Shown here: piece by piece, positions 52,921 to 55,215 of the stretch | How positions within the stretch are numbered: the stretch's first letter is position 1 | Layout of the letters: each line of letters starts with the position of its first letter | NCBI RefSeq assembly: GCF_051903065.1 | Contig: NZ_CP178438.1 | DNA: 64,000 bases | Reading direction: 5' to 3' (one strand) | From: Escherichia coli | Lineage (GTDB): Bacteria; Pseudomonadota; Gammaproteobacteria; Enterobacterales; Enterobacteriaceae | The notes under the pieces: generated by a model | What the model was told of the DNA's origin: nothing | The model's database searches: none | Seen by the model: only the letters and a program-made list of their open reading frames with translations | Position numbers and translations under genes: made by a program

Positions 52921-53750
52921 ATGGAACTTAAAAAATTGATGGAACATATTTCTATTATCCCCGATTACAGGCAAGCCTGGAAAGTGGAACATAAATTGCC
53001 AGATATTCTATCTGTTAACTATTTGCGCCGTTATTTCTGGTGCATAATGCTGGGAAGATATAGAGGATTTGGGGAAACACATCCCGATTTTTTGAAGTGA
53101 TATGGTGATTTTGAAAATGGTATTCCTGTTCACGATATCATTGCCAGAGTTGTATCCTGTATCAGTCCTGAAAAATTTCATGAGTGCTTTATTAACTGGA
53201 TGCGTGACTGTCATTCTTCAGATGATAAAGACGTCATTACAATTGATGGAAAAACGCTCCGGCACTCTTATGATAAAAGTCGTCACAAGGGAGCAATTTA
53301 TGTCATTAAAATCCGTCTTCATATTGTTTGCATGTCTCTGATGAATTTATTGATTTTACGTTTGAATGGAAAGGGCTGAAGAAATTATGCATGGCAGCCT
53401 CATTTCGCTCAATAATAGCAGAACAAAAGAAAAATCCCGAAATGACGGTCAGATATTATAGCATTTCTGCTGATTTAACCGCAGAGAAGTTCGCCACAGC
53501 GAACCGAAATCACTGGCAAGTGGAGAATAAATTGCACTGGCATCTGGACGTGGTAATGAATAAAGACGACTTCAAAATAAGAAGAGGAAATGCAGCAGAA
53601 TTATTTTCAGGGATACCGAAGATCGCTATTAATATTTTAACGAAAGATAAGATAATCAAGGCAGGGGCAAGATGTAAGATGTGAAAAGCAGCTGCGGACA
53701 GAGACTACCTCGCGTCAGTCCTTGCGGGGGCGGGCTTTCGTAATCTTGTT
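52921..53750 (+). pseudogene. H-repeat-associated (ISAs1-family) transposase pseudogene, frameshifted and internally deleted
   Basis: Fragments in three frames: [26 protein letters not shown]..., ...[55 protein letters not shown]..., ...[31 protein letters not shown]...[21 protein letters not shown]... Confidence 0.75.
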
Positions 53751-53912
53751 CTGCAAGGGATGATAAAAAGTGCAACTTTATTCCACGCAGCTATTTAGAC
53801 AGCGTACAGTAAACAAACGAAAGTTGTTATTTCAATGGTCAGGGCAAGAGCATGAAGTGTTTACTACACACTATGCTCTTGTCCTGGAGTCAGGTCTTGT
53901 TTGGAGGGATAA

Positions 53913-54416
53913 ATGGTAGATATTGTCGAGGCCGATAAAACGGATATTTATTTCATTCAGGAGAGTGTTTATGGTAAAATCGGGCTGCCAGCTTTTGGTA
54001 ATACAATAGGACCATCTGCACAGCAGGTTGTTAAAAAGGTATTCGCTGTCGTTAAAGAACGAGATAAGACACATGCAAAACAGAGATTATTGTTGGAATA
54101 TAATGGTAACAAACTCTGGATGAATGCTATTGATGGCAGTGAAGCTATCCTACCAATAGAATTTTCTAAGCGATACGAACTTTCATTATTCAATACTACT
54201 AATTTTGGAGAAGATCCTTTTCCTGATGTTAATTTATATAATAATATGAAATCAAGTTTTTTTGTAAGGTTTGGTGGAACATCCCATCCCGAGGCTTGGG
54301 CTATTTATAATGCAAGTACGAAAGAGGTTAAATATATAGAAACTGCAAGAGAAATTGATAAAATATTCAGTGATTTTAACTTGAGTGGTACATTGCCAAT
54401 TCACATTGGTCAATGA
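53913..54416 (+). CDS. Hypothetical protein (167 aa), no recognisable motif
   Basis: ORF with RBS GGAGGG 5 nt upstream; AT-rich; between two H-repeat remnants. Confidence 0.5.
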   Translation: MVDIVEADKTDIYFIQESVYGKIGLPAFGNTIGPSAQQVVKKVFAVVKERDKTHAKQRLLLEYNGNKLWMNAIDGSEAILPIEFSKRYELSLFNTTNFGEDPFPDVNLYNNMKSSFFVRFGGTSHPEAWAIYNASTKEVKYIETAREIDKIFSDFNLSGTLPIHIGQ

Positions 54417-54482
54417 TTTTTTAAATTGTGTGATTAAATAATTGAACATTAGTGATGATTTATAGCATCATTATTCTATAAC

Positions 54483-54995
54483 ATGAATAAACGGATTGAA
54501 TGTGTTATGTTAAAAATGAGTTTATACGTAATAATATTGTTATTTTCCTTTCAGATTAGTGCAGCCATTACTAGCAAGGAAAGTGAGGTTGTTTCACCAT
54601 TATTAATGGATGTTAATTCTTCACTAACAATGCAAAATATTTCTGAATTATCCACATCATCGGAACCATCGCAACAGGGGGTATTTCCTGTAATATGTAC
54701 TCGACTTCATCCTGGCTCCGTAATGAAACGCCAGTTATTAACCGGCTGGGGGCCTGTTTTTATAATTGGTGATGATCCTTTTTCTCTGCGCTGGATGAGT
54801 GAACATCTGGAGATCCTTAAATCGCTAAATGCCCTTGGTTTGGTTGTTAATGTTGAATCAGTAGAACGAATGGAGGTATTACAGCAGCGGGCTGATGGGT
54901 TATTGTTATTGCCAGTTATCTGCGATAATTTCGTGCAAACTCTGCAATTAAATGCTTATCCGGTATTAATCACAGAGATGGAAATATCACAATGA
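54483..54995 (+). CDS. Hypothetical secreted protein (170 aa) with signal peptide
   Basis: N-terminal LKMSLYVIILLFSFQISAAIT signal-like segment; AT-rich. Confidence 0.5.
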   Translation: MNKRIECVMLKMSLYVIILLFSFQISAAITSKESEVVSPLLMDVNSSLTMQNISELSTSSEPSQQGVFPVICTRLHPGSVMKRQLLTGWGPVFIIGDDPFSLRWMSEHLEILKSLNALGLVVNVESVERMEVLQQRADGLLLLPVICDNFVQTLQLNAYPVLITEMEISQ

Positions 54996-55026
54996 TTAAT
55001 AACATAATTACTGCAAATAATATCGT

Positions 55027-55215
55027 AATTTTGAAAATGGTAATCCTGTTCACGGCACCATAATTAGAGTTATGTCTTGTATCCGTTCAGTATAATTTCA
55101 CGAATGCTTTATTAACTGGATGCGTGACTGCCATTCATCAAATGACAAAGACGTCATCGCGATTGATGGAAAAGCACTTCCACACTCCTATGATAAAAGT
55201 GGTCGCAGGAGAGCG
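55027..55215 (+). pseudogene. yafF: Second H-repeat transposase remnant (yafF-like), lacking 5' end and interior
   Basis: Homologous to 53105..53290 of the first remnant (NGNPVHG...[44 protein letters not shown]). Confidence 0.7.

Follow-up and report, generated by a model that had tools for sequence, protein, structure and literature searches.

We examined a window of 64,000 nucleotides from an Escherichia coli chromosome (NZ_CP178438.1), in which two degenerate copies of the insertion sequence (IS) ISEc1 enclose two small open reading frames, here called ORF-A and ORF-B. Within this window, the aspV T6SS-1 island (T6SS, type VI secretion system) meets the core genome, yafV-ivy-fadE, at its right end, and the two genes lie at that junction. 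We read the pair as an orphan T6SS effector-like/immunity-like module at a decayed junction between island and yafV, with the IS copies as recombination scars. In the structural part of this account, namely the decayed junction and the anatomy of the IS copies, we have high confidence; for the whole reading, function included, we consider the case evenly balanced. Judging from sequence and gene context, the chances are slightly better than even that the ORF-A family is a T6SS effector family, while it is rather doubtful that in E. coli this particular pair works as an effector/immunity module. A more specific proposal, which we regard as tentative and on the unlikely side, is that the ORF-A family comprises unrecognised small, Hcp-sized antibacterial T6SS effectors with a novel beta-rich fold, and that in Escherichia and its relatives a clade of periplasmic DUF2859 proteins was co-opted as immunity, replacing the polytopic membrane partner of the long-form members.

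ORF-A (53913-54416, plus strand) is preceded by a good ribosome-binding site, GGAGG, and encodes a protein of 167 amino acids (18.9 kDa, pI 5.6) with no signal peptide and no hydrophobic or membrane segment. It has no match in Pfam, NCBIfam, PADLOC, PHROGs or the sequences of the PDB, and a word-indexed search returned E. coli copies only: 762 sequences that cluster at 98%, and an allele at 68%. An exhaustive profile and hidden Markov model search of 1.84 billion representatives recovered a family of 36 proteins, mostly of about 190 amino acids, none of which has a signal peptide. The conserved motifs of the family are an N-terminal I-x-E, G-L-P and N-T-I-G-P-S, then G-x-D-P-x-P-x-x-L-Y, G-G and P-x-A-x-x-Y-N. 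When 100,044 species genomes were scanned with two narrow peptide patterns of the family, Escherichia whittamii was the only species returned. The AlphaFold model of the nearest full-length relative, P0089, built with 26 sequences, is confident (pLDDT 88.9, pTM 0.80) and consists of long beta-hairpins with a C-terminal helix; fold searches with this model matched no solved fold.

ORF-B (54507-54995, plus strand) encodes 162 amino acids and belongs to DUF2859/TIGR03765, the 'PFL_4695 family integrating conjugative element protein'. The match covers the full length of the models, with 99.6 bits against a cut-off of 25 for Pfam PF11072 and 120.7 bits against 59.75 for TIGR03765 in NCBIfam. The N terminus carries a signal-like hydrophobic segment (MLKMSLYVIILLFSFQISA; KD19 maximum 1.94 at residue 4). 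Relatives with 44-55% identity occur in integrating conjugative elements (ICEs) of Salmonella, Citrobacter and Buttiauxella, whose transfer modules we take to resemble the ICEclc/SPI-7 type. An earlier note on this DNA, made from its letters, had described two unassigned ORFs in an AT-rich cassette. The cassette is as described, with 35.5% GC between the IS remnants against 55% for yafV and with both ORFs intact. Of the two ORFs, ORF-A indeed lacks a family match, but RefSeq already names the second gene, as it does both IS pseudogenes.

The two genes are co-oriented with a gap of 90 bp, and the order of ORF-A then ORF-B is kept in all four sequence versions of the pair. A second E. coli allele, with 76% DNA identity and protein identities of 68% (ORF-A) and 74% (ORF-B), keeps that gene order, and neither frame is broken. 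On a metagenomic contig from another organism, the genes run VgrG, DUF4123, a 538-amino-acid protein, an exported 313-amino-acid protein, PAAR, a 47-amino-acid ORF, an ORF-A homologue (59%) and a DUF2859 gene (48%); this contig has no IS, and its flanking genes differ. On a further contig, a fragment of a long-form ORF-A lies directly upstream of a DUF2859 gene. Finally, in a neighbour-joining tree the DUF2859 proteins encoded after ORF-A-like genes form one clade, apart from three ICE-verified copies. Given the second allele, these two contigs and the separate clade, the pairing is not accidental. It is conserved and under purifying selection, with ratios of nonsynonymous to synonymous substitution (dN/dS) of 0.31 for ORF-A and 0.34 for ORF-B across 25-32% protein divergence.

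Upstream of the pair, three loci (L006 4931-7576, L026 1-1025 and, in E. whittamii, L027 70-4139) carry a block that is absent from the window. The block consists of genes for a beta-propeller-like protein of about 330 amino acids, a TIGR02270-like protein of about 411 and a thioredoxin-like (Trx-like) protein of about 138. In E. whittamii it follows an ORF of 188 amino acids with a GHHV motif, which by eye resembles the tip or C terminus of a nuclease toxin, and broken duplicates of the 330-amino-acid gene are also found there.

Gene neighbourhoods link the pair and its relatives to type VI secretion. In the window the pair follows genes for VgrG, DUF4123, Tli1 and Tle1, while the homologous pair on the metagenomic contig follows a VgrG-DUF4123-effector-PAAR module. 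P0089 directly follows an orphan hcp. Another relative, P0096, is encoded within a T6SS core cluster, between tssC and tagJ/tssE, where it is the first of a run of small genes that includes several exported proteins and, by eye, an amidase-looking protein. A polytopic (four-helix) membrane protein of 145-157 amino acids comes after each of P0094, P0097, P0100 and P0096, and these partners are weakly homologous to one another. The pair itself has an effector-immunity layout, with co-oriented genes of which the first lacks a signal peptide and the second has a signal-like segment.

The earlier note had proposed that the bracketed genes may be orphan genes for toxins or immunity proteins, displaced from the kind of setting found at Rhs and VgrG tips. 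The context speaks for the first half of that proposal, in that ORF-A relatives occur at hcp, in a T6SS core cluster and with membrane proteins, and elsewhere the pair closes a second VgrG cargo module. The second half did not hold. No rhs or vgrG tip is present in the bracket, neither ORF matches Rhs or VgrG in Pfam or NCBIfam, and RefSeq annotates no such gene between tle1 and yafV. The frame of ORF-A opens just 143 bp upstream, at a GTG in another frame.

In the mechanism we propose, ORF-A would be a short, acidic member of its family that is made in the cytoplasm and behaves like Hcp-sized T6SS cargo effectors. ORF-B would be an exported DUF2859 protein recruited from the transfer module of a conjugative element. 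It would act in the periplasm as the partner of ORF-A, most likely as an immunity protein. The pair would then serve either as a weapon of the adjacent T6SS-1 or as protection when neighbours fire the same effector.

Several observations weigh against this reading. We know of no immunity role for DUF2859, so the role proposed here would be unprecedented, and the exported DUF2859 partner in Escherichia differs in kind from the membrane partners of the long forms. In three verified ICEs, the DUF2859 gene lies between an SLT-like gene of about 175 amino acids and a TraG/TraD-type coupling-protein gene. Several members of the ORF-A family are found in loci with no T6SS gene nearby, and every database name in the family, including those of the named members from Serratia, Morganella and Pantoea, is 'hypothetical protein'. 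The Escherichia short forms lack about 30 conserved central residues of their relatives of about 190 amino acids, and they are acidic (pI 5.2-5.6) where the long forms, at about 21 kDa, are basic (pI about 9); the short forms may have lost or changed their activity. The AlphaFold model of ORF-A itself, with 3 sequences, is poor (pLDDT 39).

The strongest alternative is that the cassette is inert. ORF-B would be a leftover of a decayed ICE, ORF-A an unrelated hitch-hiker, and the two, with no T6SS function, would have been kept in a recombination-poor corner next to yafV. Such an origin fits the ORF-B score, which is far above the threshold of an ICE family, as well as its relatives in genuine ICE transfer modules; yet there is no other ICE gene at this place, and the window around ORF-B contains no coupling-protein, SLT-like or mating-pair genes. 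The surroundings look like those of debris, being AT-rich and full of IS scars, and some lineages, CFT073 and PT62 among them, have a truncated cassette. Decay would also fit a dN/dS above 1 for ORF-B between two very close alleles, a comparison with few changes. Decay of this kind is nevertheless hard to reconcile with two intact genes whose dN/dS is about 0.3 across 25-32% protein divergence. An unrelated hitch-hiker also fails to account for a pairing that recurs in four sequence versions, one of them after a VgrG-PAAR module, and for the paired DUF2859 copies forming a clade of their own. We consider this alternative unlikely.

A second alternative retains a role for both genes and denies that ORF-A is a toxin. 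ORF-A would be of an accessory or immunity type, such as an adaptor, a chaperone or an orphan immunity protein in an array past a polymorphic toxin, and ORF-B would be a second, independent periplasmic protein of the immunity type. The acidic short forms (pI 5.2-5.6) do resemble many immunity proteins in this respect, but the long forms are basic, and in their two-gene units the membrane protein comes second, which is the usual order of effector then immunity, and one relative comes directly after hcp. The pair follows the beta-propeller/TIGR02270/Trx-like block in E. whittamii and OU349849, an arrangement that recalls an immunity or orphan array, and in E. whittamii that block comes after the GHHV ORF, which by eye looks like a toxin C terminus. 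Against this, ORF-A has no signal peptide or membrane segment and could protect only against a cytoplasmic toxin. On this evidence the alternative is improbable.

It is very improbable that the two genes are a diverged form of the ICE pair 'SLT-like lytic transglycosylase + DUF2859', that is, a module for cell-wall remodelling. The idea has some appeal because the ICE gene directly upstream of DUF2859 is of similar size (about 175 amino acids) and has a faint SLT match, and because ORF-A has a conserved N-terminal Glu, an A-x-Y-N and the motifs Q-E-S and A-I-Y-N, which by eye recall SLT motifs. However, BLAST found no similarity, hhalign gave a probability of 0.1%, Pfam found no match and the model is beta-rich, so that a lytic transglycosylase identity for ORF-A is largely refuted.

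The structural half of our account, in which the pair sits at a decayed island/yafV junction among recombination scars, rests on the two IS copies. Both are degenerate H-repeat transposase remnants, as the earlier note recognised. We aligned them to a full 1,291-bp ISEc1 of the ISAs1 family ('H-repeat'; L002:2928-4218), and the similarity is highly significant. Remnant 1 (52777-53753, plus strand) matches ISEc1 by blastn at 52802-53308 (92.5% identity, E=0) and at 53309-53769 (89.4%, E=2e-176). By global mapping it covers IS positions 1-532 and 845-1291, at 90.3% DNA identity over 976 nt, with an internal deletion of 312 bp (IS 533-844). The reading frame is further broken at four points, where one base pair has been gained (53011) or lost (53067, 53331 and 53729), and reference-frame stop codons stand at 53045, 53098 and 53682. 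In other words, the frameshifts and the loss of the central region that the note described are both there, the former as four 1-bp indels. Its coordinates of 52921..53750 fit the transposase reading frame; the element itself extends about 145 bp farther to the left and includes terminal inverted repeats.

Both of those repeats are present, CAGGGAAAAATCA at 52777 and ...TAATCTTGTTCTG ending at 53753, as judged by alignment with the ends of two full copies. No target-site duplication surrounds the element: the flanks, …ACTGTACTCC before it and CAAGGGATGA… after it, have no common direct repeat, which fits the exchange of one flank by recombination. Among the protein fragments of remnant 1, the Pfam domain DDE_Tnp_1 scores above its cut-off and DDE_Tnp_1_assoc below, because the fragment is short. 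RefSeq annotates both remnants as ISAs1 family transposase pseudogenes, remnant 1 with the remark 'frameshifted; internal stop'.

Remnant 2 (55019-55234, plus strand) is only 216 bp long. Its first part, 55019-55215, corresponds to IS 323-519 (82.7% identity over 197 nt, E=2e-56 by blastn), and its second part, 55208-55234, to the 27 nt of IS 1263-1289, with an 8-bp overlap at the fusion; IS 1-322 and IS 520-1262 are missing. The left IS end is therefore gone and the right end is kept in diverged form. The note's description of a 5' segment fused to the 3' end is correct, with the refinement that the 5' segment is internal (codons ~60-125), the first 322 bp having been lost. Between the two remnants there is a direct repeat of 200 nt at 81% identity.

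Remnant 2 has a counterpart in the K-12 pseudogene yafF. The two have in common a diverged IS terminus and the bases that follow it (…GCGGGCTTTCGTAGT…CCCCGACTCTCCCC…), and hence the same junction between IS end and yafV. Because terminus and junction are the same, remnant 2 and yafF derive from one old insertion beside yafV that was later eroded differently. The two copies in the window thus belong with ISEc1/H-repeat, whose K-12 copies include yhhI, ydcC and ybfQ besides yafF, by the 90% identity and both terminal inverted repeats of remnant 1 and by the yafF junction of remnant 2. They differ from those copies in being non-functional deletion derivatives, with deletion end-points unlike those of yafF, and in that the genes before them form a Tle1 cargo module and an uncharacterised pair rather than an Rhs tip. 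They are members of the ISAs1 family by descent, not functional elements, and neither is able to transpose.

Other genomes have fuller copies at the site of remnant 1, a point that the note had proposed to check. Enteroaggregative E. coli (EAEC) 042 has an intact ISEc1 of 378 amino acids at this site, and the E. whittamii copy retains the central 312 bp that are deleted here. In EAEC 042 (L022 2669-5678), the stretch before the cassette holds, besides the intact ISEc1 and directly upstream of it, an ISAs1-family transposase gene that a group II intron (ltrA) has split.

What lies left of remnant 1 depends on the lineage. It is tle1 with a yafV relic in the window and in FDAARGOS_144 (L004), IS1 in PT62, the intron-split ISAs1 and other cargo in 042, and the thioredoxin-like gene in E. 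whittamii. The right side is constant across the lineages compared. The relic, a 3' end of yafV at 52713-52776, lies between tle1 and remnant 1 and abuts the left inverted repeat of the latter; it forms a 64-nt direct repeat, at 77% identity, with the true yafV 3' end at 55261-55324, and blastn of 52730-52776 against the K-12 yafV 3' end gives 85%. This suggests that ISEc1 once interrupted a copy of yafV located directly after tle1. Homologous recombination through the IS would then have joined the tle1 lineage to a segment carrying the IS, the cassette, the stump and yafV. As the left DNA varies and the right DNA is constant, we infer that remnant 1 marks the breakpoint at which alternative cargo modules were swapped in, with the yafV relic as a scar of such an event. 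The IS copies would have served only as blocks of homology, a module-swapping joint and not a vehicle.

The cassette occurs in 758 of the 5,426 complete E. coli genomes (about 14%), among them EAEC 042, avian pathogenic E. coli (APEC) IMT5155 and NC101. It is present at 763 places in total and as a single copy in 755 of the carriers, and at every locus examined it lies at yafV. The ORF-A/ORF-B pair is also found with no IS between it and its upstream neighbours; the bracketed genes are not cargo of the IS, being a conserved pair that also occurs without one. A composite transposon that moves the cassette might be read into two copies of the same IS that flank 1.26 kb of foreign-looking DNA in direct orientation, the upstream one intact in some strains, but this reading is effectively refuted by the missing left end of remnant 2, by two transposase genes that are both dead here, by the lack of a visible target-site duplication, by the single copies beside yafV, by the mere 81% identity of the two IS copies and by the existence of the pair elsewhere without an IS.

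Among described systems, the Ssp4/Sip4 pair of Serratia marcescens comes close in layout to the long forms of ORF-A. Ssp4 is a pore-forming T6SS effector with a four-helix inner-membrane immunity protein, and the pair is often far from T6SS genes and sometimes adjacent to them (PMC12669606). The long-form relatives are likewise small genes without a signal peptide, followed by a polytopic membrane protein of about 150 amino acids, and show a similar pattern of proximity to T6SS genes. Ssp4 is, however, mainly alpha-helical, with 13 helices and a modelled pore region at residues 114-302 (PMC12669606), whereas the ORF-A family has about 190 amino acids and is beta-rich; no sequence relationship is known or expected. 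The E. coli partner also differs, as it is a soluble exported DUF2859 protein and not a membrane protein. Tfe1 (Ssp3) of S. marcescens is a 183-amino-acid T6SS effector without recognisable domains, with homologues scattered in Enterobacterales and, reportedly, its immunity gene directly upstream (PMC6617251). It is comparable to ORF-A in its small size and in having no conserved domain; by description the two differ, in that the Serratia member of the ORF-A family has 193 amino acids and a downstream partner.

Closer at hand, the Tle1/Tli1 VgrG-DUF4123 module of E. coli T6SS-1 lies in the same island, immediately upstream, and follows the same logic of an effector made in the cytoplasm and an exported immunity protein. 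ORF-A, unlike Tle1, contains neither a lipase domain nor any other that can be recognised, and it lacks its own DUF4123 adaptor; its size suggests cargo of the Hcp lumen rather than of a VgrG adaptor. ORF-B, for its part, is like the PFL_4695 (TIGR03765/DUF2859) proteins of ICEs in its full-length model match and its 44-55% identity to the ICE copies, and unlike them in having no transfer genes nearby and in belonging to a separate clade encoded after ORF-A-like genes.

The IS remnants are nothing new in themselves, being annotated pseudogenes of which one is the counterpart of K-12 yafF. The gene pair, as far as the literature we searched shows, is unnamed and undescribed, and DUF2859 and PFL_4695 each receive only a passing mention in one or two genomic surveys. 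A T6SS cargo effector/immunity pair, which is what the two genes may form, is a known kind of system. The ORF-A family, compact and unnamed, stands as a candidate T6SS effector family; it is repeatedly linked to T6SS genes, and the one member modelled with confidence matches no solved structure. The pair would offer a first functional handle on DUF2859 outside conjugation. The locus would also be an example of a dead IS serving as a fixed joint for recombination, with T6SS cargo modules changing on one side of it and the terminal gene pair remaining attached to the core genome.

Two other identities for the ORF-A family were considered and set aside. The position of P0096, in the usual hcp slot after tssC, raised the idea of a divergent Hcp, which hhalign and fold searches rejected. 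A defence or phage protein was also rejected: PADLOC gave only a chance-level Cas8b match on P0089 (E 0.0078), and PHROGs gave none. The metagenomic T6SS cluster that encodes P0096 has about ten small genes in the usual hcp position between tssC and tagJ (L020 7001-12062), and no Hcp was detected in that stretch. Besides the ORF-A-family member and its membrane partner, these genes encode three exported proteins, a 126-amino-acid protein that is amidase-like by eye and a 275-amino-acid protein with a glycine-zipper C terminus.

A tblastn search of plasmids returned a single match to the family, a degenerate gene on a mislabelled Salmonella fragment. The gene, accompanied by a small ORF on the opposite strand, lies at 8001-8790 of Salmonella Senftenberg 'plasmid 4' (NZ_LN868946.1), next to sseK1 and with no T6SS gene near it. 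The presence of rpoBC, the thi operon and sseK1 makes this 'plasmid' look like a chromosome fragment.

Between remnant 1 and ORF-A, a leader hairpin occupies 53839-53887 (plus strand), 26 nt upstream of the ORF-A start. This inverted repeat folds as RNA into 16 consecutive base pairs with a 4-bp extension, at -31.8 kcal/mol (z = -3.6; none of 200 shuffles was as stable). The hairpin is found in 546 genomes, once in each and always together with the cassette; the 76% allele has the right arm only. Although its ends resemble the ISEc1 terminal repeat (CAGGGCAAGA), we rejected a miniature IS, since the hairpin is single-copy and confined to the cassette. A search of the spacers for non-coding RNA, the hairpin included, gave no Rfam match at E<=0.1.

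The surrounding genes were named from the RefSeq annotation of an identical strain, the segment 52700-55300 being 100% identical in strains ECNB21-M121 and 23CRST027. The annotated order is Hcp, VgrG, M35 peptidase, a hypothetical gene, a VgrG fragment, DUF4123, DUF3304/Tli1 and Tle1, followed by an ISAs1 pseudogene, a hypothetical protein, the 'integrating conjugative element protein', the second ISAs1 pseudogene, yafV, ivy, fadE and lpcA. The phospholipase effector gene tle1 (50603-52663, plus strand; Pfam T6SS_Tle1-like_cat and _C) is the final recognised cargo gene of the island; upstream of it lie the genes for Tli1a (50032-50586; NCBIfam Tli1a_fam, Pfam DUF3304) and DUF4123 (48948-49718). 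On the other side, yafV (55269-56045, minus strand), for 2-oxoglutaramate amidase, is the first core gene right of the island. At the left, K-12 yafT, the first gene past tRNA-aspV, maps to 21200-21982 of the window.

At the same locus in K-12 (L003 4258-5085), ORF-A and ORF-B are replaced by ykfM, which encodes a 159-amino-acid polytopic membrane protein, and the yafU pseudogene on the opposite strand, which has a glycine-rich membrane segment. A kinship with ORF-A/ORF-B was rejected, as there is no similarity at the DNA or protein level, and ykfM/yafU may be a different decayed pair of the toxin/immunity type. Farther left in the window, a complete module of VgrG, M35 peptidase and a 249-amino-acid protein (44424-48364) precedes a VgrG C-terminal fragment (48597-48941), which stands directly ahead of the DUF4123-Tli1-Tle1 module. 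The 249-amino-acid protein (47615-48364, in a region of 29% GC) has no family match. As the fragment follows a complete module, two cargo modules are stacked, apparently through recombination inside vgrG.

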